DNA of 64,000 nt from Verrucomicrobiales bacterium (GTDB lineage Bacteria > Verrucomicrobiota > Verrucomicrobiia > Limisphaerales > J093), in the NCBI GenBank assembly GCA_037445715.1, contig JBBIJZ010000001.1:34364-98363 (forward strand), in the 5' to 3' direction. The notes beneath the pieces are model-generated. The model saw only the letters and a program-made list of their open reading frames with translations. It did not search any database and was not told where the DNA came from. Made by a program: the position numbers and the translations under genes. Position 1 is the stretch's first letter, and the number at the start of each line of letters is the position of its first letter. Of this stretch, positions 8,574 to 64,000 are shown piece by piece.

Positions 8574-8669
8574 GCAGGGAGCAAGGCCCCGTGCCGGGCC
8601 GGTGGCGCCGGTTTCGCGGTTGACGAGTTGCCGCCCCCCCCGCAACGTCACACCCTTTAATTGCGGGCG

Positions 8670-13175: not shown

Positions 13176-15986
13176 TCACCAGCGCAGGCGAAAGAAGCGG
13201 TGCGCCTCCGCGGAGCGCGGCAGTTCGATGGCGTAGGCGGGCTGCTCGGGTTGCCACGCCTCGACGGTCGTCCAGTCGCGCAGGTCGTAGGAAGCTTCCA
13301 GCACTTGCGCCAGTCCGGGCGGCGAGGCGATGTGCAGCCGCACCGCGCCGGCGGCGGATTCGGCGCGGACGAAGCGCGGTCCGGGCTCCAGCGCCACCAC
13401 GGCCACGCCTTCCGCCGGCAGTTCCAGGCGCCAGCCGTCGCCCGCTTCCGGCAGGCGCCGGCCCGTGATCAGTTCCGTGGCCGCCGCCGGGGGCCGTGCC
13501 AGTCCGGTCCCGGACTCGACCCGCAGCACGCCGCTCTGGGCGGTCGTGGCGGTGTTCAACGCGGTCAGGTACACCGCGCCGTCGGCGCCGGGGCCGAACC
13601 GCTCCAGCCACAATGCCGGGTTGTCGCCGCGCGCGCCGGTGACCGGCTGCCAGCCGGCTTCAGCCACCCGCCGGATGAGCGGGATGTACTTTTGGAACAG
13701 CGGCCGGTCCCGGTTGTACCAGGCGGGGTTGCGCCAGTACGGGTTCTCGGCGGCGTTGTGGCTGAACATCGAGGGGAACATGCCGTAAAACAGACTGCGC
13801 TGGAAATAGCGCTCGACCAGGTTGGTGGTGAACCGGTCGTAGTCGGTGTTCATCAGCAGCAGGTACGGCTTGGCGCCGGCCAGGGTCCGCCAGAGGGCCA
13901 TCTGGGCGTGCGACGCCGGGCGGTATTCGCCGCCGGGCAACCAGTCGGTTTCGGTGCCCAGCACATCCAGCCAGCCGCACAGGAAGCCGTAGCGATAGGG
14001 CACGCCGTTGGCGAAGACCAGCCCGCCGAGCCGGTGCACGTCCTCGCTGATCCAGCGGGTGAACTCGTAAATCGCCAGCCCCTTGAACAGCGCCGGGCGG
14101 CGGGTGTCCGGGGCGAAGCTCAGCGGCACGGTGGTGAACCGGAAATGCTCGCGGCGGAAGTTCAGGTCGGCGGTGACGTAGCCCTCGAGCGAGTCGAGGT
14201 ACTCGCCGTCGAGGCGGGCGGTGAGGTTCGAGCCGTAGAGGCGGGCTTTCACGGCGTCGTTCCAGTGGAGGGTGGCGGCGTTGGGCGAGGCGGGCAGGGC
14301 GGGGTTGGGGTTGAGGCTCCAGACCGCGCCGTTGGCCCAGGGTTCGTTGCGGAAGAGCAGGGCCGGTTGACCGTCAGCGTCGTGCATGGCGGCGTCGCGG
14401 CTCACCCGGGCCATGTCGCGATGGAAGCCGGCCGGGCCTTCGGCGTAGGTGTCGCGCACGCGCAGGGCCTCGGCCAGCGTGCGCGGCAGTTCGGGCGCCA
14501 TGGGCATCCACCAGGTCATCGGTTCGGTGTAGCGGAAGCTGAGGATGTCGTGGGCGTCGTCCCAGGCCACGGCGTTGTCGCCTTCCTTGAAGCGGAAGCC
14601 GAAGTCCTCCCAGCCCTGCACGGTGCTGATGTCGGTGAAGGGCATCCAGAGGCCCTGGCGGCGGGCGCGCACCGCGAAGCGCTCGGGCCAGATTTCCGCG
14701 AATTTCCGGAAGGCCGCGCGAAAGCCCCAGGCCGGCGCGAAGCGGTACAGCACCAGCCCGAAGTCGGCACTGTTGGGAAACTGCTCACTCTCGGGCACCA
14801 GCCCCAGATCGAAGGCCGCGCAGAATTGCCGCGTGCCGGCGTGGTAGAACCACCGGAACTGGGCCGGCCGATCGTAGTCCCAGCCCAGCGCCAGCCCCGC
14901 GTCCGCGCCGTGCACCGCCGCGACCGGGTAGGTGGACATCGTGCCGGTGGTGCCGGCGCCGACGGCCTGGGCGGCGAGAAACTCGCCGTTGCCGCTGATG
15001 GGGCGGCTGCGCCGGATGTCATCGCCCCAGCTCCAGCCGGTCGCATCCAAGGGCAGGGCAAAGACCAGCAGGAGGGCGCGGTCGCCCCCGCGGCGGTTGG
15101 TCAGGCGGCCGCGCAAACGCAGGTGGTCCGCCCGGGCCTCGACGCGCAAATCCAGCGCCAGGCCCAGTTCGGCGCATTCGCCGTTCTCGAAGGCAAACGC
15201 ATCCGAGTCCGCCGTCACATCGCGGGCAAAGAAACCGCCATGGGCCGGTCCGGCCAGTTCGCGGCCATCCAGTTGCAGGGACACCACGCGCGCGCCGGCC
15301 AGGCCCAGCCGCAGCCCATCGGCCGTGGCAAAACTGGCCGTGGCCGCGGGCGGCGGATTGGTCGGCAGCACCGGAAGCATCGGCGTGCCCTGGAACAGGA
15401 CGGCCGGGCCGTCGGCGGTGACTTCCGTGACCGAGACGTCGTCGAACCACACCGAGCCCGCGTGTCCCCGCAACAGGCAGTGCAGGGTCAGGCTGCGGAC
15501 CGGTTTCTCCGGGAGGATGATCACCTCGCGCGCTTGCCAGTCGTGGGTGCCGGTCGCGAAGTTCGCCGTTTGCCCCCACAACGGCGTGCCGTCGTCGTAG
15601 ATGAGGTCGGCGTACAGCGAGTAGCCGCTGTCGGCGCTGCCCGAGACGCCCTCGGCCCGGCTCCAGCCGCGCACGATCAGCGGGGCGACGGTCTTGCGAT
15701 TGAGGGTCAGCGTCTGGCTGGCGCCGCGCCAGCCGCTGGTGTCCGGCGCCGAGCAGCGGAGGGCGTTCGAGCCCTGGCGGCCTTCACCGGCGGCCGCCTG
15801 GTAGCCCTGGGGCGCGGCGGACCAATACAGGAAACTGCCGCCGCTGCGTTGCTCGAATTCGCCATTGCGGAGCAGGGTGGTTCCGGGGCCGCTGCTGACC
15901 ACCCGCAGCACCGGCGCGGCCGCCACGAGCGCGCTCGCCAGCCCGCCCACCAGCGCCCGGCCCGGCCACCATGCGAACCGTTTCAT
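13176..15986 (-). CDS. Large secreted protein of unknown function (N-terminal CBM-like beta-sandwich, central uncharacterised region, C-terminal 'RFFRLRW' module)
   Basis: 937-aa ORF with signal peptide (MKRFAWWPGRALVGGLASALVAAAP). The N-terminal NGEFEQ...YW...GSNALRC block resembles CBM4/9-type modules. I recognise no catalytic motif. Confidence 0.6.
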   Translation of the reverse strand: MKRFAWWPGRALVGGLASALVAAAPVLRVVSSGPGTTLLRNGEFEQRSGGSFLYWSAAPQGYQAAAGEGRQGSNALRCSAPDTSGWRGASQTLTLNRKTVAPLIVRGWSRAEGVSGSADSGYSLYADLIYDDGTPLWGQTANFATGTHDWQAREVIILPEKPVRSLTLHCLLRGHAGSVWFDDVSVTEVTADGPAVLFQGTPMLPVLPTNPPPAATASFATADGLRLGLAGARVVSLQLDGRELAGPAHGGFFARDVTADSDAFAFENGECAELGLALDLRVEARADHLRLRGRLTNRRGGDRALLLVFALPLDATGWSWGDDIRRSRPISGNGEFLAAQAVGAGTTGTMSTYPVAAVHGADAGLALGWDYDRPAQFRWFYHAGTRQFCAAFDLGLVPESEQFPNSADFGLVLYRFAPAWGFRAAFRKFAEIWPERFAVRARRQGLWMPFTDISTVQGWEDFGFRFKEGDNAVAWDDAHDILSFRYTEPMTWWMPMAPELPRTLAEALRVRDTYAEGPAGFHRDMARVSRDAAMHDADGQPALLFRNEPWANGAVWSLNPNPALPASPNAATLHWNDAVKARLYGSNLTARLDGEYLDSLEGYVTADLNFRREHFRFTTVPLSFAPDTRRPALFKGLAIYEFTRWISEDVHRLGGLVFANGVPYRYGFLCGWLDVLGTETDWLPGGEYRPASHAQMALWRTLAGAKPYLLLMNTDYDRFTTNLVERYFQRSLFYGMFPSMFSHNAAENPYWRNPAWYNRDRPLFQKYIPLIRRVAEAGWQPVTGARGDNPALWLERFGPGADGAVYLTALNTATTAQSGVLRVESGTGLARPPAAATELITGRRLPEAGDGWRLELPAEGVAVVALEPGPRFVRAESAAGAVRLHIASPPGLAQVLEASYDLRDWTTVEAWQPEQPAYAIELPRSAEAHRFFRLRW

Positions 15987-16084
15987 GACTCGGCCCCAAC
16001 ATCGGCGAAACCCCCGCGCCAGCCAAGCCCGGAACCGGACCCGGCGGCGCAAGGCCGTACTTCCGCTTCCCAGGTCGGGGGCCT

Positions 16085-44570: not shown

Positions 44571-45665
44571 TCAGCGGCGGCGCAGCCAGAGGGCCAGTCC
44601 GCCCAGAGCCAGCAGGGCCAGCGGCGCCGGCTCGGGGATGACCTGGAAGGCCATGATGCCGTTGTTCGGGCTGACCACAAACAGCAGCGAGCCGTCGGGC
44701 GAGAAGTCCAGGTTGCCCACGCCGTTGGCATTGGCGTTTTGGGTGGGGAGGGCCGAGAAGTCAATCGGGTTCACCGAACCGCCGTCCACAAATTGGGTGA
44801 CGTCGTACAGATTGACCCGCTGCTCGCCGGCCGAGGTGCGGAACGTCAGGCTGGCGAACAGTTTGCTGCCGTGGTGATACGCGTTGGGGCCCGGGGTGCC
44901 CGCACCGCTCACCAAGGTGTAGGATTCCCGCAGACTGCCCGTGCCCGCGAAGGGGTCGTAGGCGATGTAGCGGAGGGTGTTGTTTTGGTCGGCGTAGATC
45001 GTGAACTCCGAGCCGAAGGACAACCCCAGCCGCATGTCGCCATCCCCGATGCCCGAGATGGGAATCCCTTTGACGTCGCCGGGGTCAAAGGTCGCCCCAT
45101 CGTCGAAGGAAGGGATGTGGGCCAGGATGTTGTCCATGTTGGCGGTAGTGCCACCAGCCCCCGCGATAATCTCGAGCATGGCGCTGGAGCTGCGGACCCG
45201 GAAGGAGTCGCCGAAGCGGTAGGTGCCCCCGGCCGGATCACCCTCGTAAACCTTCACCGGCGTGGCCCCTTCGGAAGCCCACTGGTACACCTTGAAGGGA
45301 CTGGTGCTGGAACTGGTCGTCAGGTTGGCGGCGTAGATTTGGCCGTTTTCGGCCACGTCAATCATGTTCAGCGGAAACGTCCCGCCCGAGACACCGGTCA
45401 CATCCATCGTGCCCACATAACTGCCTGTGGCGCCGTCCAGAACGATGATTTTGGTGCTCTCGTTGCGGCTGACCACCAGCACGTGGCCGGTGAAGGGGTT
45501 ATAGGCCAGCCCGCGCTCGGTGTTCGAGTTGGCGCCGCCCAGGGTCACGCCCGGTGCCAGTGTGGTGCCCGGGGCGAGGCTCCACAACGGTTCCAGCGCC
45601 GGTTGCGCCCAGCCCGCCGCGCCAACGCCCAAAATCACCAGGGGAACGAGTTGTTTTGGATTCAT
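44571..45665 (-). CDS. Secreted PEP-CTERM sorting-domain protein (beta-propeller-like body)
   Basis: Signal peptide MNPKQLVPLVILGVGAAGWAQP. C-terminus VIPEPAPLALLALGGLALWLRRR is a PEP motif, TM helix and Arg cluster. Confidence 0.85.
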   Translation of the reverse strand: MNPKQLVPLVILGVGAAGWAQPALEPLWSLAPGTTLAPGVTLGGANSNTERGLAYNPFTGHVLVVSRNESTKIIVLDGATGSYVGTMDVTGVSGGTFPLNMIDVAENGQIYAANLTTSSSTSPFKVYQWASEGATPVKVYEGDPAGGTYRFGDSFRVRSSSAMLEIIAGAGGTTANMDNILAHIPSFDDGATFDPGDVKGIPISGIGDGDMRLGLSFGSEFTIYADQNNTLRYIAYDPFAGTGSLRESYTLVSGAGTPGPNAYHHGSKLFASLTFRTSAGEQRVNLYDVTQFVDGGSVNPIDFSALPTQNANANGVGNLDFSPDGSLLFVVSPNNGIMAFQVIPEPAPLALLALGGLALWLRRR

Positions 45666-45721
45666 AAGACGCTGTCTAGCTAGCCAAACATCTGCCGGGC
45701 GTCAACCCTTCTTTTTCGACT

Positions 45722-50288: not shown

Positions 50289-51005
50289 TCAATGCAGCCG
50301 CGCGTCGTGCCACCACGCGACGCGGCCGTCCAGGTAGAGCCGGTTGCGCCCGCGCGGGTGCGGGGCCCGGCCGGCGAGGGCTTCCTCGACGCCCGGTGCC
50401 GTGGCGGGGAAGTACACATCCGTGACGAACTCGACTTCCGCCGGGCTGCTGACCGCGCCCACCATCGGGTTGTTGGCCGCCGCCAGGTCGCTGACGGCTT
50501 GCGCGCGCGATTTGGCCCAGAAGTTGTCCGGCGGTACCGGATCGTCGGCCCGGTCGAAGCGCCACATCCAATAGCTCACACGCCCGGCGTTGGTTTCGGG
50601 GCCGGCGGCCTGCCAGACGGCGGTGACGCCGGCCCAGAAAGGGCGTCGCGTGGCGGGGCATTGCCAGACCTCGACCGACGGCAGTTCCGGGCGGAGCACC
50701 GCCGCGGCCCAACCGGCGCGGGGGTCCGAGCGCGGCCAGGTGGTCCAGGGCTTGTAGCCGCCGGGCAGGCTGGTCTTGAGGTCGCGGCGGTCGGGGAAGC
50801 GGTCGGCGTGGTCGCCCAGGTACAGCTCCCAGGCCAGACCCTGCTGGTGGAGGAGGTTGCGGCAGGCAGTGGCGACGGCGTGCTGGCGGGCTCGGCCCAA
50901 GGCGGGCAGCAACAGCCCGGCCAGCAGGGCGATGACCGCCAGGACCACCAGCAGCTCGACCAGCGTGAAGGCCCGGCTTGAAGATGCCAGGTGCCGTGGG
51001 CTCAT
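50289..51005 (-). CDS. Prepilin-type N-terminal methylation-domain protein with C-terminal H-X9-DG motif (DUF1559-like pseudopilin)
   Basis: AFTLVELLVVLAVIALLAGLLLPAL N-terminus. C-terminal HPRGRNRLYLDG is exactly H-X9-DG. Confidence 0.85.
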   Translation of the reverse strand: MSPRHLASSSRAFTLVELLVVLAVIALLAGLLLPALGRARQHAVATACRNLLHQQGLAWELYLGDHADRFPDRRDLKTSLPGGYKPWTTWPRSDPRAGWAAAVLRPELPSVEVWQCPATRRPFWAGVTAVWQAAGPETNAGRVSYWMWRFDRADDPVPPDNFWAKSRAQAVSDLAAANNPMVGAVSSPAEVEFVTDVYFPATAPGVEEALAGRAPHPRGRNRLYLDGRVAWWHDARLH

Positions 51006-51013
51006 TGTCGGGC

Positions 51014-51238
51014 ATGAATGTGGAATTAATCCGAAGTCACCTGCAAGGCGGCTTCAAGCCGTTCCGGTTGTTCCACGCGGATGGCCGTACGTTCGACGTG
51101 CCCCATCCGGAATTCATCCTGGTCACTCGCTGCAGCGTGGTGGTGGCCAACGCGCGCGGGTTCGTGGACATCCTGGACCCCCTGCACATCGTCTCGATCG
51201 CGGAACTGGAATTGCCCGAGGAACGGGCCCAGAGCTAG
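51014..51238 (+). CDS. Small conserved hypothetical protein (74 aa), tandem paralog A
   Basis: High amino-acid similarity by eye to the next ORF. Nucleotide differences are mostly at third codon positions (for example ccc cat ccg gaa ttc atc ctg gtc vs ccg cac ccg gaa ttt gtc ctg gtt). Confidence 0.7.
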   Translation: MNVELIRSHLQGGFKPFRLFHADGRTFDVPHPEFILVTRCSVVVANARGFVDILDPLHIVSIAELELPEERAQS

Positions 51239-53822: not shown

Positions 53823-54443
53823 TCAGTACCAGCCGGGCGGTGCGCCGGCGGCGGCGGGGGAAGGGCGGGCATGTGGGCTGATCCAGACCAGCGTGCCCAC
53901 CGGCACCTGGTCGAAAAGCGGCATCAGCCCGGCCGCTGCCAGGTGGATGCACCCGCGCGAGGCCGGTCGGCCCAGGGTGGGCTCGTCGTCCAGTCCGTGG
54001 ATGTAGATGTAGCGGCGGAAGGTGTCCACGGGGCCGCCCTGGTTGAAGCCGGGTTCCAGCCCGCGCAGCCAGAGGATGCGATGGGCGATGGGGGCGGGGC
54101 GGGTGCCGGCCCAGGTCAAGCCCACGGGAACGCGGGAGCGGAAGACCGTGCCCACCGGCCAGCCGGCGCCGATTTTGGCGGCGACCTGGTGCAGGCCCAG
54201 CGGGGTGCGGTTCGACCCCTGGACCTGGCCCAGCCCGAAACGGGAAGTGGACGCGCGGAAGCGGCGGTGAAGACGGTGTTCACGCCCGGCCGGGTCCCGG
54301 GCGGTCCACCATTCCAGGCACTGGCGGTCCGTCCAGACCAGCAGCACGTGTCGGGTGAGGCGCACGCCCAGGCGGCGGCAACGCCCGAGCATCTCGCCGG
54401 GCAGGGCAGGGCAGGGGGGCGGCCGGCCGGGCACGGCGTTCAC
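53823..54443 (-). CDS. L,D-transpeptidase (YkuD/ErfK) family protein
   Basis: IYIHGLDDEPTLGRPASRGCIHL catalytic His/Cys region. The GTG start overlaps the argA stop (GTGA). Confidence 0.75.
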   Translation of the reverse strand: MNAVPGRPPPCPALPGEMLGRCRRLGVRLTRHVLLVWTDRQCLEWWTARDPAGREHRLHRRFRASTSRFGLGQVQGSNRTPLGLHQVAAKIGAGWPVGTVFRSRVPVGLTWAGTRPAPIAHRILWLRGLEPGFNQGGPVDTFRRYIYIHGLDDEPTLGRPASRGCIHLAAAGLMPLFDQVPVGTLVWISPHARPSPAAAGAPPGWY

Positions 54444-55720
54444 TGGAGTTTCTTGACCAGAATCTTCGAGCGGCGCCCGGTTTGCTCGTACTTTTCGCGC
54501 CGGGCCGGCGGGAGGTCCTCCGGGCTGCCCTCGCTGAAGCCGCCCTTGGACTGGAAGTAGGTGAAGGCCTGGGTGGAGAGGGCGAGCAGTTCTTTGAGGC
54601 CGAGCTCGCGCGCCCGGTTTTCGGCGAACTGAAGCAGCTTGCGGCCGATGCCCTGGTTTTCGTGCGAGGGCTTGACGTAGAGGCAGGCCACCTCGCCCTT
54701 GCCGTGCTCGGGGTAGGGATGCAGGGCCACACAGCCGACGGGGTTCCGGTCTATCTCGTACAGGAAGTAGTCGGCCAGGTTTTTCTCGATGCTGGCGCGG
54801 CTGCGACGGACCAGTTCCTCGCTTTGCACCGAGGGCTGGATGAGCTTGAGCAGTTCAGGGATGTCCTTTTTGAGGGCGCGGCGGATTTGCCGGTATTCGT
54901 TGGCGTACACGAGCGTGCCGACACCTTCGTTGGAAAAGACCTCCGTCAGCAATGCCTCGTCCACACGACCATTGATGACGTGCACGCGCGGGATGCCGGC
55001 CTTGCAGGCCGCGGCGGCGTGCTGGGCCTTGGAGAGGCAGGCGGGGCTGAACTCGTCCCGGTGTGCCTCGAGCGCCCGCTCCAGGTCGCTGGCCAGGATC
55101 TGCCGCACCAGCCGGCCCTGGCGGACCAGGCCGTCGTAGGGGGTGACGAACAGGATTTTGATGGCCTGCAAGGCGACGGCCAACGCCACGGCCACGGCGT
55201 CGGAGTTGACGCGGTAGGTGCGGCCTTCCCCATCGAAGCCCAGCGGCGGCACCACGGGGAGGATGTCGTCCTGGAGCAGGGCCTGGAGCAGGCCCACGTC
55301 CACCCGCTCCACTTTGCCGGTGAAGAGATGGTCCACGCCCTGGAGGATGCCCAGGGGATGGGCGACGACGGCGTTGGGGCAGGCGGCCCGCAGGTCCTGG
55401 GTGGCCAGGCCCTCGAGGATTTCGTGGGTCAGGCGGTTGGCCGCCTCGAGGGCCAGTTGCAGCGTGGCGGCGTCGGTGATGCCGGCGCCGTCCAGATCGG
55501 AGGGGGTGAGGCCGCGGGCTTCGGCCAGGCGCCGGATTTGGGCGGCGGCGCCGTGCACCAGCACCACGCGAATGTTGAGCGAGCGCAACACCGCCACGTC
55601 CATGAGGATGTTGGCGAAGTTCTCGTCGGTTACGATCGCGCCGTCCACGCTGATGACAAACGTCCGCTCGCGGAAGCGCGGGATATATTGCAGGATGCCC
55701 CGCAGGTCGGTCGGTTTCAC
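54440..55720 (-). CDS. argA: Amino-acid N-acetyltransferase (N-acetylglutamate synthase; AAK + GNAT domains)
   Basis: N-terminal amino-acid-kinase fold (FVISVDGAIV..., VLVHGAAAQI). C-terminal GNAT (YVKPSHENQGIGRKLLQFAE). Confidence 0.85.
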   Translation of the reverse strand: MKPTDLRGILQYIPRFRERTFVISVDGAIVTDENFANILMDVAVLRSLNIRVVLVHGAAAQIRRLAEARGLTPSDLDGAGITDAATLQLALEAANRLTHEILEGLATQDLRAACPNAVVAHPLGILQGVDHLFTGKVERVDVGLLQALLQDDILPVVPPLGFDGEGRTYRVNSDAVAVALAVALQAIKILFVTPYDGLVRQGRLVRQILASDLERALEAHRDEFSPACLSKAQHAAAACKAGIPRVHVINGRVDEALLTEVFSNEGVGTLVYANEYRQIRRALKKDIPELLKLIQPSVQSEELVRRSRASIEKNLADYFLYEIDRNPVGCVALHPYPEHGKGEVACLYVKPSHENQGIGRKLLQFAENRARELGLKELLALSTQAFTYFQSKGGFSEGSPEDLPPARREKYEQTGRRSKILVKKLQ

Positions 55721-55979
55721 GTCAGGCCTTCACCCGGTGACTGCACGGCATTGAGCCGAAATCCGGCCGCGGCCGGCAATGTTTTTCTGTGTCGGCAGAC
55801 CGGCGCGGTTGCCCCGCCCAAGCCCCTCTGCGGAGCGTCTGCAATTTTTTCTGCAAAAAACCGTTCAATGGCCTTGCCAAGTATTGCCTTGATGCTACCC
55901 ATAAACAGTCAGCGCGACGGCCCCGACCTGATTACAACGGGCGTAAGGCTTGTGGTCGCCCGCGCGGCGCCACAATCCA

Positions 55980-58900
55980 ATGACCAGCAAGCAAGTCCTC
56001 GTTGGGGTCGTGGTCACCCTCCTGGGGGTGGCCTATTGGGCCCGGTCGCAGGCCCCCACCTTGTCGGTGCAACCCGAGCCCGGGCGGCAGGTGCGCCTGG
56101 CCTGGCCGCAGGCGGCGGGGGATTTTCTCCTCGAGGAAAGCCGCACGCTGGGACCGGGCGCGGTCTGGGAACCCACGGGCCTCAGCCCGGTGCCGGAAGG
56201 GGACGAACTGGCGGTGCGGGTCGAGGCGGCCAGCGGCGCGCGGTTCTACCGCCTGCGCTTCGTGGGCGTGGCGCCGCTGACGGTCATTTCCAACACCTCC
56301 CCGCCCAACGGCGCGCACGGCGTCTCCGTCAACCGCGACACCTTCATCGAGTTTACCGCGCCCCTGGCCGCGAACACGCTGCTCTCCTCGAATCGTTTCT
56401 TTGCCGAGTTCGGCGGCCGGCGTCTGCTCTCCCGCCTGGAGCTGTCCTCCGACCGCCGGCGCGCGTCGCTCTTCTACCTGGAAAACCTGCCGGCCGGCGC
56501 GCGCATCCGGGTCACCTTCGACGGCAGCGGCCTGAACGACGCCTTCGGACGCGGCGTGGACGTGGATGGCGACGGCCAACCCGGCGGCGGTACCAACTTT
56601 TTCTTCGACACCTTCAGCGCCACGCCCCTGCCCAACACCGCGGTGATCGGCCGGGTGTTCGCCTCGGACCCCGAGCCGGGCGGCCGGCCGGGCGAGTTTT
56701 TCAACCGCCCCCTCCAGGGCGTGACCATCACCGTGGACGGCGCCGAGGAGACCCTGCGGACCACCACCGACGCCAACGGCTTCTTCAAGCTCCAGCCCGC
56801 GCCGGTGGGGCGGTTTTTCGTGCATGTCGACGGCCGCACCGCCGTCGGCAGCCAGTGGCCGAACGGGGATTACTACCCCTTTGTGGGCAAGGCCTGGGAG
56901 GCGGTGGCCGGCCGCGAGGACAACCTGGCCGCCGGCACCGGCGAAATCTTCCTGCCGCTCATCCGCGGCGGCAGCCTCCAGCCGGTCAGCACCACCCAGG
57001 ACACCCCGGTCAGCTTTCCGCCCGAGGTGGTCCAGCAAAACCCGGTCCTGAGCGGCGTCGCCCTGACCGTCCCGGCCAACGCCCTTTTTGACGACGCCGG
57101 CAACCGCGGCGGGCGGGTGGGCATCGCCCCCGTGCCGCCGGACCGGCTGCCCGAGCCGCTGCCACCGGGCCTGGCGTTGCCGCTGGTCATCACCATCCAG
57201 ACCGACGGGCCCATGAACTTCGACCGGCCCGCGCCCATCCGCTTCCCCAACCTGCCCGACCCGCGCACCGGCAAGAAACTGCCGCCCGGCGCCAAGAGCG
57301 CCCTCTGGAGCTTCAACCACGACACCGGCCGGTGGGAACTGGGCGGCCCCATGACCGTGACCGCCGACGGCAACTTTGTGGAAACCGACCCCGGCGTGGG
57401 CGTGCGCCAGCCCGGCTGGCACGGGACCTTCCCCGGCTCGGATGGCGGTTGCGACAACCTCATCGGCGGCGGCGATGGCGATGGCGACGGTGACGGCGAC
57501 GGTGATGGTGATGGTGATGGTGATGGTGACGGGGATGGCGACGGCGATGGCGACGGCGATGGCGATGGCGACGGGGACGAAGACCCGTGCAAAGACGCCG
57601 GCCCGCCTTGCGGTCCGAATGCTGCCGGTCCGGTGGATCAAAGCGACTGGCCGATTACCAACGACGATACCGACCCCAGCGGTAACTACACCCGGCATCG
57701 CGGCTTTGAAGTGCAGGGCGGCATTTGCTACGACGCCGCCACCCGGACCTGGCGGTACCGCGTGAACCGCCTGGTCTGGCGCGGGGCCATCAACACCAGC
57801 CTCAACAGCGGTTTCCCCAGCACCGAACCGGTCATCGGCGTCAACGTCACCTCCAACAACTACTGCGCGATCATCGAAGAAATGGCCGGCTACCTGGGCC
57901 GCGGCCGCGGTTCCTGGCATCTGCGCGCCGCCAGTCTGGCCCACGAAGTCCACCACCGCGACGTGGACTGGCCGGGCATTTTGAATCCGCTCTGGCAGAA
58001 CATCGAGGCGGCCATCGAGGCGGAATCGGTGCCGTGCGAGCGCGCCCCCGCCGAGGCCGAGCTGATCCTCAGCAACCGGGTCGCCCAGCACCAGGCCACG
58101 CTGCACACCCAGTTCGTTCAGGGCGTCTCTGCCTTCAACGTCGGCCACGATGGCGCCCGCAACGACGGTGCCTACCAGGCCGGCCAGGCGGTGTTGAATG
58201 TCCGCATCAACGAGATTCGCAATCACGCCACCAACCAGGGTTGGGCACCCTGTCCGCCGTTTTTCCTGGTCCGTCAGAATGTGGCCCTGGCCGATCACGG
58301 CGCGCCGCACCTGGTTGCCCTCGAGGTCAACGCCGCCTCCCTCACCCTCGGTCCCGGCCAGTCGCTTCAACTCCAGGTCATCGGCCGTTACGACGACGGC
58401 TCGGAGGTGGACCTGACCGCCGCGCCGCAGACCGTTTACGAGAGCAGCTCCCCCGCGGTGGCCACGGTCAACGCCGCCGGCCAGGTGACCGGCGTGGCGT
58501 CCGGCCAGGTCGAGATCACCGTCAGGCACGCCCCCGGGCCCGACCGCCACCCCATCTTCGGTGCCATTTCGCTCCTGGTGCCGCCCGATTACGACCGCGA
58601 CGGTGACGGCATGCACGATGACTGGGAACGCCAGCACGGCCTCAATCCCAACGACCCGCGCGACGCCATGCAGGACGCCGACGGCGACGGCCTGCGCAAC
58701 ATCAAGGAATTCGAGTTCGACACGGACCCGCGCCAGCAGGACACCGATGGCGACGGCCGCTCGGACTTCAAGGAGACCCTGGACGGCACCGACCCGCTCA
58801 CGCCGGACACGCGCACCCGCCCCGCCTCGCTCGGCCTGCACTACTTCGTGCTGATGAATCTGGAGACCGGCCTCATCGAGCAACGCGGGGTCACCGGCCG

Positions 58901-61460
58901 CAACGGCGAAGGCCACGAAAGCCTCATCATGGCCCCCAACACCCGCTATCGGCAGTGGGTGTTCCACCCGGCCACCGGTCGCATCGGCACCGCCGACTGG
59001 ATCAGCGCCGACACCGGCCGCCGCTTCCTGCTCCCCGCCGTCATCCTCCGCCGCGACCGCTCGCCCGACCGCGACGGTGACGGCCTGCGCGACACCGCCG
59101 AAATGATCCTCGGCACCAACGCGGACAAGGCGGACACCGACGGCGACGGCGTGGCCGACGGCGCGGAAATCCGCAACGGTACCAGCCCGCTGGACGGCCT
59201 GCCCGCCGCCACCGGCGTGCTGGCCGCCGCCGACACCCCCGGCAATGCCGTGGACGTGGTGGCCCGCAACAATTACGTGGTGCTGGCCGATGCCCAGGCC
59301 GGCGTGGCCTTCTTCGACATCCGCAGCGGCTTCACCCCCACCCTGATCGCCCAGGTGGACACCCCGGGCCTGGCCCGCGCGGTGGCCGTGCTGGGCTCGC
59401 CCACCAGCCGGGATGTCCTTCGCGCGGCGGTCGCCGACGGCCCGGCCGGCCTGACGGTGGTGGACCTCGAGTTGCCGGCCAACGGCCGCATCACCCAGCA
59501 GGTGAACCTGGGCGGCGAGGCCCTGGCGGTCACCCTGCGCGGCGGCGTCGCCTACGTGGGCTTGGACAACGGCTGGCTGGTCGTGGTGGACACCTACACC
59601 GGCACGGTGCTGGAACGCGTCCGGGTCAACGAACGCATCAACGACCTCGGCGCGCGGGGCGATTACCTCTTCGTGGTCACCCAAAGCCGTCTGCTGGTCT
59701 ACTCGGTGTGGGCCCTGGCGGAAAACCCGGTTGGCAGCCTGAATCTGAGCTTCTTCCCCGAGGGTATCACCCAGCGCCGCCGGTTGTTCCTGGGCAACCC
59801 CTTCGCCCTGATCACCAGTTACCCGGGCTACGACGTGGTGGACTTCAGCGACCCCGCGAACCTCGTCCGGCGCGGCCGCGCCACCGACGGCACGGTCAAC
59901 TCCTTCAAGCAAATCGTGGACAACGGCTCCGGCCTGGGCATCGCCGCGGTGGGCGTCAACCCCCGCAACGACGGCACCCACCACGTCTCGCTCTACGACG
60001 TCTCGAACCCGGACGTGACCACGCGTTTCCGTGCCACTTTCCCGACCCCGGGCATCGCCCACGCCGTCTCGCTCTTCAACGGCCTGGCCTACGTGGCCGA
60101 CGGCGAGGCCGGGCTGCAGGTGGTCAACTACCTGGCCTACGATGCCGGCAACCAGCCGCCCACCATCAGCCTCTCCGCCGATTTCCCGCTCGACCCCGCC
60201 CAGGCCGAGGAAGGCAAGCTGGTCGAGGTGCTCGCCACCGTGTCCGACGACGTCCAGGTGGCCCGCGTCGAGTTTTACGTGGACGACAGCCGGATCGGCA
60301 CCGACGGCAACTTCCCCTTCAGCCAGACCTTCGTGACACCGACCCGCACCGACGCGCGCACCTCCTTCCGGCTGCGTGCCCGCGCCTTTGACACCGGCGG
60401 GAATTTCACCTGGTCCACCGAGTACGAGGTCCAACTGGTGCCCGACGCCACCCCGCCGCGGGTGATCCGGCGCTTCCCGGCGGCCGGGGCCATCGTGGGC
60501 TCGACCGACACCGTCGCGGCCTACTTCAGCGAGGCCCTCCGCGAAAGCACCCTCGGCCCGGCCACCTTCCGCCTGCTCGCCGCCGGGGCCGACGCCGTGC
60601 TGGGCACGGCCGATGACACCATCCTGCCCGGCGGGGTGCTGGACTACCGCGACAGTCTCCAGGCGGCCTTCCTGACCTTCCCGGCGCCGCTGGAGCCGGG
60701 CCTGTACCAGGTCCAGGTGCTCCCGCCCATCGCCGACCTGGCCGGCAACCCCCTGGCCGCGCCCGTGGCCTGGAACTTCTGGATCCTCGGCCAGACCGAC
60801 TCCGACGGCGACGGCGTGCCGGACAACATCGAGGCCGCGCTCGGCCTGGACCCGAACAACCCGGACACCAACGGCAACGGCGTGCTCGACGGCCAGGAAG
60901 ACCCCGACCGCGACCGCCTGCCCACCGCCTGGGAACTGGTCTTTGGCCTGGACCCGCGCGTGGCAGATTCCGACGGCAACGGCATCAACGACGACCTTGA
61001 GGACAACGACAACGACGGCCTGCCCAACTTCCGCGAAGGGCAGACCGGCGGCAGCCCCCTCAATCCCGACTCCGATGCTGACGGCTGGGACGACAACGGC
61101 GAAGTGGCCGACGGCACCAACCCCGCCGACCCCGGTTCGACACCCCCGGTGCGGGTCAACTCCCTCGCGGCCAGTTTCCTCAATGCCCTGGCCCAGAGCG
61201 CGCCGGCGGGCACCCCGCTCCACGTGGCCAGCCTCAACGCCAGTTACCTGAACGCCCTGCCCAGCGCACCCCCGCCCGACACGCCGAAGGATGTGCTGTC
61301 GCTCCCGGTCAGCTACCTCAACAGCCTGCCGGCGACGGTGCCGACGGGTACGCCGCTCGACCTCCAATCCCTGCCGGCCAGCTACCTGAACACGTTCACC
61401 GCGCCCTACTCGGGGCCCGTGTTCGTGCCCTCGCCGGTGGTCAGTTACCTGAACCAATGA
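55980..61460 (+). CDS. Giant (~1826 aa) mosaic cell-surface/secreted protein: RFYRL module, SbsA-type Ig, CarboxypepD_reg-like, (DG)17 linker, HExxH segment, Big_2, thrombospondin-type-3 Ca-binding repeats, LVIVD-repeat propeller, Ig-like domains, C-terminal SYLN repeats
   Basis: N-terminal anchor MTSKQVLVGVVVTLLGVAYWA. Domain-diagnostic strings: GVTITVDGAEETLRTTTDANGFFKL, SLAHEVHHRD, SLTLGPGQSLQLQVIGRYDDGSEVDLT, DTDGDGRSD / DTDGDGVADG / DSDGDGVPD, AVDVVARNNYVVLADAQAGVAFFDI. Confidence 0.85.
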   Translation: MTSKQVLVGVVVTLLGVAYWARSQAPTLSVQPEPGRQVRLAWPQAAGDFLLEESRTLGPGAVWEPTGLSPVPEGDELAVRVEAASGARFYRLRFVGVAPLTVISNTSPPNGAHGVSVNRDTFIEFTAPLAANTLLSSNRFFAEFGGRRLLSRLELSSDRRRASLFYLENLPAGARIRVTFDGSGLNDAFGRGVDVDGDGQPGGGTNFFFDTFSATPLPNTAVIGRVFASDPEPGGRPGEFFNRPLQGVTITVDGAEETLRTTTDANGFFKLQPAPVGRFFVHVDGRTAVGSQWPNGDYYPFVGKAWEAVAGREDNLAAGTGEIFLPLIRGGSLQPVSTTQDTPVSFPPEVVQQNPVLSGVALTVPANALFDDAGNRGGRVGIAPVPPDRLPEPLPPGLALPLVITIQTDGPMNFDRPAPIRFPNLPDPRTGKKLPPGAKSALWSFNHDTGRWELGGPMTVTADGNFVETDPGVGVRQPGWHGTFPGSDGGCDNLIGGGDGDGDGDGDGDGDGDGDGDGDGDGDGDGDGDGDGDEDPCKDAGPPCGPNAAGPVDQSDWPITNDDTDPSGNYTRHRGFEVQGGICYDAATRTWRYRVNRLVWRGAINTSLNSGFPSTEPVIGVNVTSNNYCAIIEEMAGYLGRGRGSWHLRAASLAHEVHHRDVDWPGILNPLWQNIEAAIEAESVPCERAPAEAELILSNRVAQHQATLHTQFVQGVSAFNVGHDGARNDGAYQAGQAVLNVRINEIRNHATNQGWAPCPPFFLVRQNVALADHGAPHLVALEVNAASLTLGPGQSLQLQVIGRYDDGSEVDLTAAPQTVYESSSPAVATVNAAGQVTGVASGQVEITVRHAPGPDRHPIFGAISLLVPPDYDRDGDGMHDDWERQHGLNPNDPRDAMQDADGDGLRNIKEFEFDTDPRQQDTDGDGRSDFKETLDGTDPLTPDTRTRPASLGLHYFVLMNLETGLIEQRGVTGRNGEGHESLIMAPNTRYRQWVFHPATGRIGTADWISADTGRRFLLPAVILRRDRSPDRDGDGLRDTAEMILGTNADKADTDGDGVADGAEIRNGTSPLDGLPAATGVLAAADTPGNAVDVVARNNYVVLADAQAGVAFFDIRSGFTPTLIAQVDTPGLARAVAVLGSPTSRDVLRAAVADGPAGLTVVDLELPANGRITQQVNLGGEALAVTLRGGVAYVGLDNGWLVVVDTYTGTVLERVRVNERINDLGARGDYLFVVTQSRLLVYSVWALAENPVGSLNLSFFPEGITQRRRLFLGNPFALITSYPGYDVVDFSDPANLVRRGRATDGTVNSFKQIVDNGSGLGIAAVGVNPRNDGTHHVSLYDVSNPDVTTRFRATFPTPGIAHAVSLFNGLAYVADGEAGLQVVNYLAYDAGNQPPTISLSADFPLDPAQAEEGKLVEVLATVSDDVQVARVEFYVDDSRIGTDGNFPFSQTFVTPTRTDARTSFRLRARAFDTGGNFTWSTEYEVQLVPDATPPRVIRRFPAAGAIVGSTDTVAAYFSEALRESTLGPATFRLLAAGADAVLGTADDTILPGGVLDYRDSLQAAFLTFPAPLEPGLYQVQVLPPIADLAGNPLAAPVAWNFWILGQTDSDGDGVPDNIEAALGLDPNNPDTNGNGVLDGQEDPDRDRLPTAWELVFGLDPRVADSDGNGINDDLEDNDNDGLPNFREGQTGGSPLNPDSDADGWDDNGEVADGTNPADPGSTPPVRVNSLAASFLNALAQSAPAGTPLHVASLNASYLNALPSAPPPDTPKDVLSLPVSYLNSLPATVPTGTPLDLQSLPASYLNTFTAPYSGPVFVPSPVVSYLNQ
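57474..57584 (+). repeat. Imperfect hexanucleotide (GAY-GGN)17 tract encoding (DG)17-DED inside the giant gene
   Basis: Seventeen consecutive GAY GGN codon pairs were counted in frame from 57474, followed by GAC GAA GAC. Confidence 0.95.
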
Positions 61461-61498
61461 CTTCCCTTCTCCCCCCGCAGCAACAACACGATCCGCCC

Positions 61499-63559
61499 AT
61501 GAAAACCCAACGCAACTCGTACCTCCGCGCCGGCCTCCTCCTGGCGGCCGGCCTGTCCCTCCTGGCCACCCCGGCCCGGGCAGTGGACCCCGACCTGCCC
61601 TACGCCAGCGGCTCCACCGGGGCCGATGGCCCGCTGACCTTCCGCCAGGTGATCCCCGGCGGTCGCTCCTGGGGCAGCATGGCCTACGACGCGGCGCGCA
61701 ACCGCATCGTCCTCTTCGGCGGCCAGGTCAACGGCGTCAACCAGAACGACACCTGGCTGTTTGACGGCATCAACTGGACGCGGGTTTTCCCCGCCAACAG
61801 CCCGCAGCCGCGTTACGGTCACCGCATGGTCTATGACGCCGCCCGGCAGGAGGTCGTCCTGTTCGGCGGCCACCGCGGCGACACCCGGCTCAATGACACC
61901 TGGGTCTGGAACGGCACCGACTGGACCCAGAAGACCCCGGCCACCTCGCCCACCCCGCGCGAGTACCACGCCATGGCCTACGACGCCGCCCGGCAGGAGG
62001 TCGTCCTGCACGGCGGCAACTCCGCCGGGGCCGGCAACACCGAGACGTGGACCTGGAACGGCACCAACTGGACCCTCGAAGCGCCTGCCACCTCCCCGCC
62101 CGCCCACAACAACTCCGCCCTGGCCTACGACGCCGCTCGGCAGGAGGTCGTCCTGTTCGGCAATCAGGGCCAAACTTGGATCTGGAACGGCACCACCTGG
62201 ACCCAGCGCTCGCCCTTCGGCCCGCCCAGCGCGCGCAACCACCTCACCATGGACTACGACCCCGTCCGCCAGGAGGTGGTCCTGTTCAGCGGGAGCAACC
62301 AGTCCGACACCTGGACCTGGAACGGCACCGCTTGGACGCGGAAGACGCCCGCCAGCCAGATCGCCGGCCGCCAGGGACACATGATGGCCTGGCACAACGG
62401 CATCCAGCGCATGGTCGTGTTCGGCGGTGACATTCCCGGCGTGGACAACTGGTCGGCCGACACCGATTTCTGGAACGGCACGGACTGGGCCTTCCACAGC
62501 GGCAAGATTCAGACCTTTGACATGACCGGTCGCGCCAACGGCATCTGGAACTTCACCAGCATCAACGTTCCCAGCGGCATCACCGTGGTCTTCCGCAAGA
62601 ACACCGAGAACACCCCCGTCCGCTGGCTGGCCACCGAGGACGTGGTCATCAACGGCGCGGTGGACGTCAGCGGCGAGTTCGGCGCCAACAGCCTGCCGCC
62701 GGGCGTGCCCGCGCGCGGCGGCCCCGGGGGGTTCGACGGCGGCCGCGGCGGCATCCGCGTCTCCGCCTCGGGCAGCTTTGTGGGCGTGCCCGGCCTGGGG
62801 CCCGGCGGTGGTGCCCCGGGAACGGCCCAGCAGACCAGTCCCCAGAACCTGCGCGACGGCAAGAACGGTGAGTACAACGGTGTTTACGGCAACGCCTTCC
62901 TCCAGCCGCTGGTCGGCGGCTCGGGCGGTGGCGGCGGGGCGTCGAACAACGACACCGACGGCGGCAATGGCGGCGGCGGCGGCGGGGCGATCCTCATCGC
63001 CTCCTCGCGCGACATCACCCTCAACGGCGTCATCCGCGCCAACGGCGGCGAGCTTCAATGGAGCGGCGCCAGCCAGGGCGGTCGCGGCTCCGGCGGCGCC
63101 ATTCTCCTGCGCGCCGACCGGGTGTCCGGCCCCGGCACGCTCCAGGCCTACGGCGGCACCACTGGCAATCCCAACGGCCGCATTCGGGTCGAGGCCTACG
63201 TCCGGTCCCTCACCGGCGCGCAAACGCCCACGGCCGTCGTCGGCCTGCCCGCCGCCAGCGGCGAGCTCAACCAGGTCGGCACCCTCACCATCGTCAGCGT
63301 GGACGGCGTCAACGTCGTTCAGCCCCCCACCGGCAACCTCACCACGCCCGACGTGGTCTTCAGCGACGCCGGCCAGGTCAACGTGGTCATCAACGGGACC
63401 GGTATCCCGGACGGGACCCCCGTATCGTTGCGGGTCACCACCGCCACCGGGATCATCACCGCCGGGCCGGTCAACCTGGCCGGAGGCACGGTGACCATTC
63501 CGGTGACCGTGCCGGCGGGCGTGGGTACCTTGCAGGCCACCGCCCAGTTCACGCAGTAA
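61499..63559 (+). CDS. Secreted six-bladed Kelch-type beta-propeller protein with a C-terminal Gly-rich parallel-beta-helix-like region
   Basis: Signal peptide MKTQRNSYLRAGLLLAAGLSLLATPARA. Six ~49-aa repeats (YDAAR.EVVLFGG...DTW.WNGT.WT). A later GGSGGGGGASNNDTDGGNGGGGGGAILI...GGRGSGGAILL region. An alternative ATG at 61457 overlaps the upstream stop (ATGA). Confidence 0.8.
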   Translation: MKTQRNSYLRAGLLLAAGLSLLATPARAVDPDLPYASGSTGADGPLTFRQVIPGGRSWGSMAYDAARNRIVLFGGQVNGVNQNDTWLFDGINWTRVFPANSPQPRYGHRMVYDAARQEVVLFGGHRGDTRLNDTWVWNGTDWTQKTPATSPTPREYHAMAYDAARQEVVLHGGNSAGAGNTETWTWNGTNWTLEAPATSPPAHNNSALAYDAARQEVVLFGNQGQTWIWNGTTWTQRSPFGPPSARNHLTMDYDPVRQEVVLFSGSNQSDTWTWNGTAWTRKTPASQIAGRQGHMMAWHNGIQRMVVFGGDIPGVDNWSADTDFWNGTDWAFHSGKIQTFDMTGRANGIWNFTSINVPSGITVVFRKNTENTPVRWLATEDVVINGAVDVSGEFGANSLPPGVPARGGPGGFDGGRGGIRVSASGSFVGVPGLGPGGGAPGTAQQTSPQNLRDGKNGEYNGVYGNAFLQPLVGGSGGGGGASNNDTDGGNGGGGGGAILIASSRDITLNGVIRANGGELQWSGASQGGRGSGGAILLRADRVSGPGTLQAYGGTTGNPNGRIRVEAYVRSLTGAQTPTAVVGLPAASGELNQVGTLTIVSVDGVNVVQPPTGNLTTPDVVFSDAGQVNVVINGTGIPDGTPVSLRVTTATGIITAGPVNLAGGTVTIPVTVPAGVGTLQATAQFTQ

Positions 63560-63592
63560 CTGCTGACCGATACTTTCGGAACCTCCAGTCAC

Positions 63593-63626
63593 GGCGGGAT
63601 GAACGAGTTCATCCCGCCGTTTGGCT
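63593..63626 (+). terminator. Rho-independent terminator-like hairpin after the Kelch gene
   Basis: GGCGGGATGAA-cgag-TTCATCCCGCC (11-bp stem) followed by GTTTGGCTTTC. Confidence 0.55.
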
Positions 63627-63854
63627 TTCGGGCGGGGCCCGGACATTTGACCCTGCCGCTCTTGGGCACACCCGTTGTCGCCCCACCGGATCAACCAATC
63701 CGGCCAGGGCGCCATGGCTGAAGTTTTCGTTGGACGCCGCTGCGCCGGTGCCGAGCGTTGCTCCCACAGCGCCGGCGAGCCGGCGCACTCCATACGCTTC
63801 GCGCGGCAGCGGGCGCACCACTGCGCGGCCTTTACCCGGTTCTGGCCGGCCGAC

Positions 63855-63918
63855 CTGGCCGGAGCGTCGGCTTCCAGCCGGCCCGGGGTGGAACGGGCAA
63901 CCTGCCCATTCCGCCGGG
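63855..63918 (-). repeat. Short-form copy of the dispersed hairpin element seen at 2041-2187, in inverse orientation
   Basis: The reverse complement reads cccggcggaatGGGCAggTTGCCCgttccaccccgggccggctggaagccgacgctccggccagg. This is co-linear with 2041-2079 joined directly to 2163-2187. Confidence 0.75.
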
Positions 63919-64000
63919 CGACCCGCCCGGCGGCATGGCGCAAGTAGGGCGCCGTTGTGTCGGCGCCGCCCGGCCGGGCGCGCCGCAGCGCGGCCCTACC

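Follow-up and report, generated by a model that had tools for sequence, protein, structure and literature searches.

The DNA analyzed here is a stretch of 64,000 nt (hereafter the window) from a Verrucomicrobiales bacterium (assembly GCA_037445715.1, contig JBBIJZ010000001.1, positions 34,364-98,363 of the forward strand), in which two adjacent genes on the same strand encode a large mosaic protein (gene 1) and a Kelch/glycine-rich/Ig protein (gene 2), both with predicted Sec signal peptides. The two genes are a self-contained module conserved in Verrucomicrobia, and the conserved hallmark of gene 1 is a C-terminal tail of undescribed 23-residue repeats, not its domain mosaic. The main elements of the locus are:

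55980-61460 (stop codon included), plus strand: gene 1 (ATG 55980, TGA 61458-61460), a putatively secreted mosaic protein of 1826 aa
61143-61457, plus strand: C-terminal tail of gene 1 (residues 1722-1826), five 23-aa repeats with the core S-x-x-(V/A)-S-(Y/F)-L-N-A
61499-63559 (stop codon included), plus strand: gene 2, a putatively secreted Kelch/glycine-rich/Ig protein of 686 aa
63591-63620, plus strand: terminator-like hairpin after gene 2, a 13-pair stem (8 G-C) and then a T-rich tail

A tail-bearing gene was found directly upstream of gene 2, on the same strand, in 22 of the 22 Kelch-type loci with readable upstream DNA (the window, L001, L005, L007, L008, L009-L016, L018, L019, L021-L024, L026, L033 and L089). 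Loci L001, L005, L007, L008 and L089 were found by contig look-up, while L009-L088 came from a metagenome-contig scan with a glycine-free sub-alignment of gene 2, adopted because a genome-contig scan, overwhelmed by poly-glycine patterns, had returned only three distant loci. Full-length gene 2 orthologues from metagenome-assembled genomes of Verrucomicrobia were 45-88% identical, full-length gene 1 orthologues (L001, L005 and L008; also L080) were 46-64% identical, and where gene coordinates were called (six loci) the two genes of the pair lay 19-54 nt apart. The flanking genes differed: argA was adjacent in only four loci, and neighbour clustering (19 loci) revealed no other recurring gene and no recurring small immunity-like gene. 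The original prediction had held that the two products act together and had named beforehand, as the finding that would speak against this, orthologues that never co-occur; instead the synteny, the varied flanks and the deep divergence bear out that the two genes belong together.

The upstream partner always keeps the tail, and its architecture is otherwise not conserved. Its length runs from 207 to ~1,900 aa: 207 aa in L089 (signal peptide, a 70-aa N-terminal domain and five repeats, with no TSP3 repeats), 282 aa in L033, 574 aa in L007 and 1,696-1,862 aa elsewhere. Therefore the domain mosaic of gene 1 is dispensable.

Repeat statistics were drawn from 88 tail units of 19 loci. The period was 23 residues in 52 of 70 intervals and the consensus was (V/I/L)-x-S-(P/A)-x-(V/A)-S-(Y/F)-L-N-A-(L/A)-P, with Asn present in all 88 units and the two Ser in 83 each; conservation of the repeat core far exceeded that of the remainder of gene 1. 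Copy number varied from two to eight (mode five). Usually nothing follows the final repeat, as in the window, where gene 1 closes with its last copy (...VVSYLNQ); in most loci the tail reaches the C-terminus or comes to within a few residues of it, and in some a further 2-18 residues are appended. No Pfam model matched the tail, neither the leucine-rich repeat (LRR) models nor those of other repeats, and the assignment of the tail as LRR was rejected on this ground. A search of a word-indexed database of 5.8 billion proteins with the tail profile yielded only seven fragments, while an exhaustive search of 1.84 billion representatives placed tail-type matches C-terminally in proteins of 181-1,867 aa (the 511 total matches of that search are not a tail count, as the profile also included columns of the N-terminal domain). 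Outside this pair the tail is rare, and it was nowhere seen away from a glycine-rich partner gene. Profiles of Pfam and NCBIfam for PEP-CTERM, the type IX secretion system (T9SS) C-terminal domain and LPXTG gave no match in either protein at E <= 0.01; the tail was accordingly rejected as a sorting signal of these types, and the earlier statement that no known C-terminal sorting signal is present stands. The same is true of the absence of a dedicated secretion gene at the locus, which agreed with profile searches and neighbour clustering.

The window is ~70% G+C and consequently carries long open reading frames (ORFs) on both strands. In the frame 55947-61460 (plus strand) the GC content at codon positions 1/2/3 was 0.70/0.50/0.90, as in bona fide genes of the window, which marks this strand as the coding one; the 1826-aa product ending with TGA at 61458-61460 was confirmed. 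Two antisense ORFs (55932-61457, minus strand, 1841 aa; 61445-63943, minus strand, 832 aa) showed inverted codon-position GC and were rejected as shadow frames. For gene 2, both starts named in the original prediction are present: ATG 61457, which overlaps the stop of gene 1 as ATGA, and ATG 61499, which leaves a spacing of 38 nt. Several observations make ATG 61499 the better supported start and ATG 61457 unlikely: i) the translation from 61499 (MKTQRN...LATPARA, then VDPDLPY) reads as a Sec signal peptide; ii) a 100%-identical database representative is 686 aa long; iii) the M-K start is common to 20 of 20 aligned orthologues, and the 14-residue extension is not. A terminator scan found the hairpin at 63591-63620 as the sole strong one on the plus strand, and only chance-level matches of 5-6 pairs inside both genes, in keeping with the earlier placement of a terminator only after gene 2. 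Upstream of gene 1 lie:

54440-55720, minus strand: argA, with AA_kinase and GNAT domains consistent with this assignment, divergent from gene 1
55721-55979, no strand: intergenic spacer of 259 bp between argA (minus strand) and gene 1 (plus strand)

The divergence from argA across 259 bp was thus as first described. Scans of the locus for the sigma-70 consensus and against Rfam gave no match. A block at ~55866-55914 (caatggccttgccaagtattgccttgatgctacccataaacagtcagcg) upstream of gene 1 was largely conserved in L009, L010 and L011; it has no sigma-70 consensus match and may be a promoter or operator.

The features of gene 1 ahead of the tail are:

55980-56054, plus strand: predicted Sec signal peptide (residues 1-25, ...ARSQA before P), from reading the sequence
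56055-56264, plus strand: N-terminal ~70-aa domain (residues 26-95, ...RLAWPQ...FYRLRF)
56286-56552, plus strand: Big_5 Ig-like domain, copy 1 (residues ~103-191; Pfam PF13205, E 1.2e-6)
56637-57455, plus strand: CarboxypepD_reg/transthyretin-like domain and an unnamed "mid-domain" (residues 220-492)
57474-57578, plus strand: (DG)n low-complexity linker, (DG)17 (residues 499-533), read from the sequence
57597-58319, plus strand: Cys-rich domain with invariant H-E-x-x-H-R-D (residues 540-780)
58323-58523, plus strand: Big_2 Ig-like domain (residues 782-848; Pfam PF02368, E 2.7e-10)
58593-58775, plus strand: bacterial TSP3 calcium-binding repeats, block 1 (residues 872-932), three DxDxDG motifs
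58812-59069, plus strand: unnamed conserved ~85-aa domain (residues 945-1030), no Pfam match
59067-59168, plus strand: TSP3 repeats, block 2 (residues 1030-1063)
59217-60164, plus strand: LVIVD-repeat region (residues 1080-1395; Pfam PF08309, E 1.5e-9), presumed beta-propeller
60180-60347, plus strand: Big_7 Ig domain (residues 1401-1456; Pfam PF17957, E 2.2e-9)
60444-60779, plus strand: Big_5 Ig-like domain, copy 2 (residues 1489-1600; Pfam PF13205, E 2.6e-15)
60798-61103, plus strand: TSP3 repeats, block 3 (residues 1607-1708), five DxDxDG motifs

With the Pfam-supported domains and the modules read from the sequence taken together, the earlier count of at least nine module types in gene 1 is fair. 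The N-terminus (MTSKQVLVGVVVTLLGVAYWARSQA) reads as a Sec signal peptide, and the three TSP3 blocks hold 11 DxDxDG motifs. Residues 220-492 are the most conserved part: orthologue identity was 60-64% across residues 26-494 and 64-87% within the mid-domain (residues 330-495). In residues 220-492 the CarboxypepD_reg match in Pfam (residues 242-284) was sub-threshold, and PDB relatives were found only for this CarboxypepD_reg part; elsewhere, the Big_7 region matched a bacterial Ig domain (9kvu). The ~85-aa domain (residues 945-1030) had tblastn matches in 15 related loci, of which 14 are distinct (L005 = L006). LVIVD repeats were first defined in cell-surface proteins (PMC2447325).

The domain at residues 26-95 is common to L001, L009-L011 and the minimal 207-aa partners (P0122 and P0123). 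In the representatives search this ~70-aa domain (WPQ...FYRLR), for which no Pfam model was found, matched many other proteins, often C-terminally, and it appears to be a widespread small domain. In L007 (1-1983, 8235-12058), a homologue of the mid-domain is encoded ~6 kb upstream of the 574-aa partner by another gene, rich in Big_7, with several same-strand genes without a Pfam match between the two, an arrangement that suggests a split version of gene 1.

The Cys-rich domain (residues 540-780), overlooked in the earlier reading, was conserved in eight loci at 38-89% identity and had no sequence match in Pfam, NCBIfam or PDB. Invariant in it are H-E-x-x-H-R-D (HEVHH at residues 655-659, nt 57942-57956), which contains the HExxH signature of zincins, four Cys, and a further Glu and His; E137, E141 and H184 of the domain are invariant candidates for the third metal ligand. 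It may be a zincin-like metallopeptidase, possibly of an undescribed family. About half of the long orthologues lack the domain, L001, L005 and L008 among them, as do the short partners.

The features of gene 2 are:

61499-61582, plus strand: predicted Sec signal peptide (residues 1-28, ...TPARA before V), from reading the sequence
61637-62536, plus strand: six-blade Kelch beta-propeller (residues 47-346; Pfam, AlphaFold2 (AF2) and Foldseek)
62537-63268, plus strand: glycine-rich body (residues 347-590; AF2 and DSSP)
63281-63556, plus strand: C-terminal Ig-like beta-sandwich (residues 595-686; DSSP on both AF2 models)

Six W-x-W/Kelch blades are readable in the sequence, and the Kelch scores in Pfam were above the cutoffs (PF24681, 86.3 against 50 bits; PF13415, 63.6 against 22; PF13418, 35 against 21.6). 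The AF2 model of gene 2, built from an alignment of 89 orthologues, reached pLDDT 88.9 and pTM 0.82, with 24 strands and pLDDT above 90 in the Kelch part, and its Foldseek neighbours in PDB were six-bladed Kelch proteins: LZTR1 (E 4e-15), the C-degron receptor KLHDC2, KLHL12 and Keap1. The propeller is inserted in the glycine-rich body, between a GSTGADGxL strand (residues 34-46) and an NGIWNFT motif (residue 347 onwards), since these two elements are only 12 residues apart in the Kelch-less partner of L080.

The C-terminal half (residues 330-686) was modelled separately with 49 sequences, stand-alone homologues included (AF2; pLDDT 89.5, pTM 0.81). DSSP on this model showed rung-like sets of three short strands and a glycine-rich stretch of ~105 residues that has no regular secondary structure and is modelled confidently. 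Foldseek against PDB returned nothing at E <= 0.001: the best match had E 0.05 over at most 111 aligned columns, and the weak matches, of ~90-110 columns, are assumed to lie in the Ig-like end. Against a viral structure library the only matches had TM below 0.4 and were collagen-like or glycine-rich proteins; a phage pectate lyase matched at E 0.19 and TM 0.11. The glycine-rich body had no model in Pfam, NCBIfam or PHROGs. The original prediction had described a six-blade Kelch propeller followed by a region resembling a parallel beta-helix: the six blades were confirmed, the propeller proved to be inserted in the body, and fold comparison gave no structural match to a known right-handed beta-helix. 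A small solenoid would be compatible with the three-strand rungs in the model, and the beta-helix label is at most plausible; what is established, at the level of the model, is a confident prediction that has no solved structural neighbour. Conservation in the body falls almost entirely on Gly, which suggests a structural role more than a catalytic one; across gene 2, invariance is found chiefly at Gly, Trp and Pro and at a few Arg, Asp and Ser. Gene 2 as a TpsB-type transporter of two-partner secretion was rejected: it has no beta-barrel or POTRA domain, only the Kelch propeller and the unnamed glycine-rich/Ig body.

For the glycine-rich/Ig body at least 3,238 homologues were found, most of them stand-alone secreted "hypothetical proteins" of ~390-560 aa. 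The few that have a named source are from Nitrospirota, Methylomirabilota, Gemmatimonadales, Rhodothermales and Roseimicrobium, to which a genome scan adds Nitrospira, Aquabacterium and Variovorax. The loci of Kelch-less homologues (L028-L088 and L002-L004) revealed, in other phyla, a cassette in the order RHS-repeat/TIG protein, glycine-rich protein and giant Rhs/YD protein (e.g., L047 6848-18446 and L078 6875-15173), of which we found no description. The upstream same-strand gene (27 loci) encodes an RHS repeat and IPT/TIG domains, and the downstream giant (23 loci; 1,900-2,900 aa) a beta-propeller, CarboxypepD_reg, DUF6531 and 7-12 RHS repeats. Residues 220-492 of gene 1 aligned with six giant Rhs proteins as one block in the same domain order (E 2e-24 to 8e-7), with motifs common throughout; in the giants the matching segment stands immediately before DUF6531. 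The earlier reading had not noted this link. Because Kelch-less homologues of gene 2 thus adjoin Rhs giants that share a module of gene 1, the partnership of glycine-rich body and giant protein is, by these sequence relationships, an old one.

The form of the tail also differs between the two types of loci: the SYLN tail was present in 22/22 Kelch-type loci and 0/60 Kelch-less loci. Upstream in L080 and L082 lies a full-length orthologue of gene 1 (49% identity over residues 99-1726, HExxHRD domain included) whose tail consists of five to six NVxVAQPxVSIVLPG repeats of ~23 aa (the tail of L082 finishes with ...PPVKVRLNQ); its partner there has no Kelch. A few Kelch-less cassettes likewise have a tandem-repeat tail on the upstream protein: L078 and L081 (LPVSVYIQP, 19-aa period), and, with PVSVxM-type tails, L002, L074 and L076. 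Repeat tails are therefore found beside glycine-rich proteins of both kinds, Kelch-bearing and Kelch-less, SYLN tails only beside the former, and tail type co-varies with the presence of Kelch in the partner.

We propose, with confidence that is evenly balanced, that the pair is transcribed as a unit and that its two products, exported by Sec, form a complex through docking of gene 2 on the tail of gene 1. Co-transcription is suggested by the shared strand, the 38-nt gap, the lack of a strong internal terminator and the strong hairpin after gene 2. Gene 1 would be a modular, calcium-binding (calcium-stiffened) stalk of TSP3 and Ig-like domains that carries exchangeable payload domains (here the transthyretin-like and mid-domain module, the candidate HExxHRD metallopeptidase and the LVIVD propeller) and would always end in the 23-residue repeat tail. 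Gene 2 would be the constant partner, its glycine-rich body and Ig-like domain docking on or capping the tail; this body is the likelier docking surface, because tails occur with Kelch-less partners too. The inserted Kelch propeller would be an added binding head that either takes an external ligand or specifically clamps the tail in its SYLN form; a binding role suits it because the solved structures nearest to it, LZTR1 and KLHDC2, are receptors for peptide or protein substrates. Once assembled, the pair would act outside the cytoplasm, possibly at the cell surface, binding and possibly cleaving macromolecules. Its role may be adhesion, substrate capture or proteolysis; the polysaccharide or prey binding and the S-layer-like assembly of the original prediction are likewise no more than candidate roles.

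Several points weigh against this proposal: i) the case for co-transcription is one of gene layout only; ii) no outer-membrane anchor, lipobox or sorting signal was recognised in either protein, and with only predicted Sec-type signal peptides both could be periplasmic or released; iii) the strict 23-aa period also fits a self-folding solenoid that needs no partner; iv) in most Kelch-less cassettes the upstream protein ends in an IPT/TIG-like domain (...NTFTVxP) with no repeat tail, therefore such a tail is not universally required by the glycine-rich family; v) the HExxHRD domain is absent from about half of the long orthologues, therefore proteolysis cannot be the core function of the module.

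A wider form of the docking proposal, which we put forward only tentatively, is that the tail variants (SYLN, VSIVLPG and PVSVYIQP) and the adjacent glycine-rich/Ig protein make up an unrecognised multi-phylum docking or assembly system for giant Sec-exported proteins, among them Rhs/YD toxins of Nitrospirota and other phyla. The body would then be a fold with no solved relative, and in Verrucomicrobia the system would have acquired its Kelch head and shed the shell of Rhs proteins.

The main rival, in our judgement unlikely, is that the pair is a secreted effector system derived from Rhs proteins: gene 1 would descend from a Sec-exported polymorphic toxin of the Rhs/YD type, without the shell and with the HExxHRD domain as effector, gene 2 would be an accessory for delivery or receptor binding, and the pair would act against other cells and not as an adhesin. 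The position of Kelch-less gene 2 homologues between the RHS-repeat/TIG protein (27 loci) and the Rhs giant (23 loci), the homology of residues 220-492 to the segment just before DUF6531 and the invariance of the HExxHRD motif all agree with it. Yet gene 1 has neither RHS repeats (PF05593) nor DUF6531 (PF20148), no toxin domain follows the tail, no small immunity-like gene recurs beside the pair, L001, L005, L008 and the short partners lack the HExxHRD domain, and the locus lies among chromosomal housekeeping genes.

Somewhat less probable still, the tail could be an autonomous anchor or solenoid that binds the envelope or a polysaccharide, with gene 2 co-expressed in the same surface layer and not bound to the tail. 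The strictly kept 23-aa period and the two strand-like segments in each unit are features typical of solenoids, copy number varies between two and eight with no change in gene 2, and most Kelch-less relatives lack such tails. Nevertheless, the tail was never seen away from a glycine-rich partner gene (the lengths of proteins with C-terminal matches correspond to the range of the partners), tail type co-varies with Kelch, and neither LRR nor any other repeat model matches.

We regard it as improbable that gene 2 is a periplasmic factor for assembly, export or modification that recognizes the tail transiently, in a chaperone- or processing-like manner, and is absent from the final structure. The one-to-one, tightly linked pairing, the recognition of short peptide motifs and C-termini by Kelch propellers of eukaryotic substrate receptors, and the position of the tail at or within a few residues of the C-terminus in most loci are in its favor, but no conserved polar or catalytic residues stand out in gene 2, which also lacks a membrane segment or ATPase, and the C-terminal extensions of 2-18 residues in some loci argue against strict end recognition. 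Finally, that the two genes are functionally unrelated neighbours has almost no remaining credibility, being effectively refuted by the 22/22 synteny across varied genomic contexts and deep divergence.

Docking of the partner on the tail, if true, would explain the assembly or presentation of a whole class of giant secreted proteins, in Verrucomicrobia and, via the Kelch-less relatives, among the Sec-dependent Rhs toxins of other phyla, for which we know of no delivery machinery. It would also provide an annotation rule, by which a gene ending in a 23-aa repeat tail and followed by a glycine-rich gene is read as such a pair. All homologues are named only "hypothetical" or generically, literature searches found no description of the two-gene module, and no family model exists for four of the modules (tail repeat, glycine-rich body, mid-domain and HExxHRD domain). 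Of these, the glycine-rich body (at least 3,238 homologues) is a widespread fold with no solved structure, and the HExxHRD domain is, on its motif, a candidate new metallopeptidase domain for enzymology.

Other genes of the window were recorded in passing. A single 723-aa ORF (8661-10832, plus strand) encodes low-molecular-weight phosphotyrosine phosphatase, RpiB and serine hydroxymethyltransferase domains; it represents an unusual fusion of all three or else three genes in one frame with no stop codon between them. A 968-aa ORF (13176-16082, minus strand) has a gene-like codon-position GC (0.69/0.55/0.90) and no Pfam match at E <= 1e-5. A DUF4623 protein (44571-45701, minus strand) has a marginal C-terminal PEP-CTERM match (20.1 bits against the Pfam cutoff of 20.7), and another protein (50289-51053, minus strand) has a prepilin-type N-methylation motif; because of these two matches, the genome may use known sorting or pilin systems for other proteins.

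Among known systems, Sec-dependent Rhs/YD-repeat (teneurin-like) polymorphic toxin cassettes share several parts with the pair: they encode Kelch-less homologues of the glycine-rich/Ig body, their giants carry the module of residues 220-492 (CarboxypepD_reg and mid-domain) ahead of DUF6531 and hence ahead of the shell, and the proteins of both are large and Ig-rich, with signal peptides. On the other hand, gene 1 lacks the RHS shell, the DUF6531 plug and a C-terminal toxin, there is no immunity gene at this locus, the order is reversed (the large protein is upstream of the glycine-rich gene), and the pair has the Kelch propeller and the SYLN tail in addition.

Large, repeat-rich bacterial surface proteins with Ig-like domains and TSP3 repeats, such as the gliding and cohesion proteins CglD and MtsD of Myxococcus, resemble gene 1 in signal peptide, TSP3 repeats, Ig-like domains and a beta-propeller. 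The weak NCBIfam matches of gene 1 to CglD and MtsD arise through the TSP3 repeats, and the scores were far below the cutoffs (CglD, 51 against 400; MtsD, 43 against 800; AgmC_N, 16.8 against 275), and gene 1 has no VWA domain, lipobox or gliding-motility gene context. Eukaryotic six-blade Kelch receptors (LZTR1, KLHDC2, KLHL12 and Keap1), which use the face of the propeller to recognise short peptide motifs or C-terminal degrons, share the fold of gene 2 (TM 0.7-0.8 on the target); unlike them, at 14-23% identity, gene 2 lacks BTB/BACK, a BC-box and a ubiquitin-ligase context, and its propeller sits within the glycine-rich body of a putatively secreted bacterial protein.

Glycine-rich domains of polyglycine-II or polyproline-II (PPII) helices are found in the snow-flea antifreeze protein and the phage S16 adhesin gp38. 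Gene 2 recalls them in its GGxGGxGG-type runs, its confidently modelled segment with no alpha or beta structure and its weak matches to collagen-like and glycine-rich viral proteins, but no significant structural or sequence match was obtained, and its body also has beta rungs and an Ig-like end.

With the cohesin-dockerin system the likeness would be one of function only: a short duplicated C-terminal module, next to calcium-binding DxDxDG-type repeats, marks a variable cargo and would be bound by a constant partner. Neither protein matched dockerin or cohesin in Pfam, PDB chains of cellulosomal scaffoldins matched only the CarboxypepD_reg-like part of gene 1, and the pairing here is one-to-one between genes, as opposed to many enzymes on one scaffoldin. 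The building principle itself is familiar, that of an operon-encoded large secreted protein with an accessory partner.

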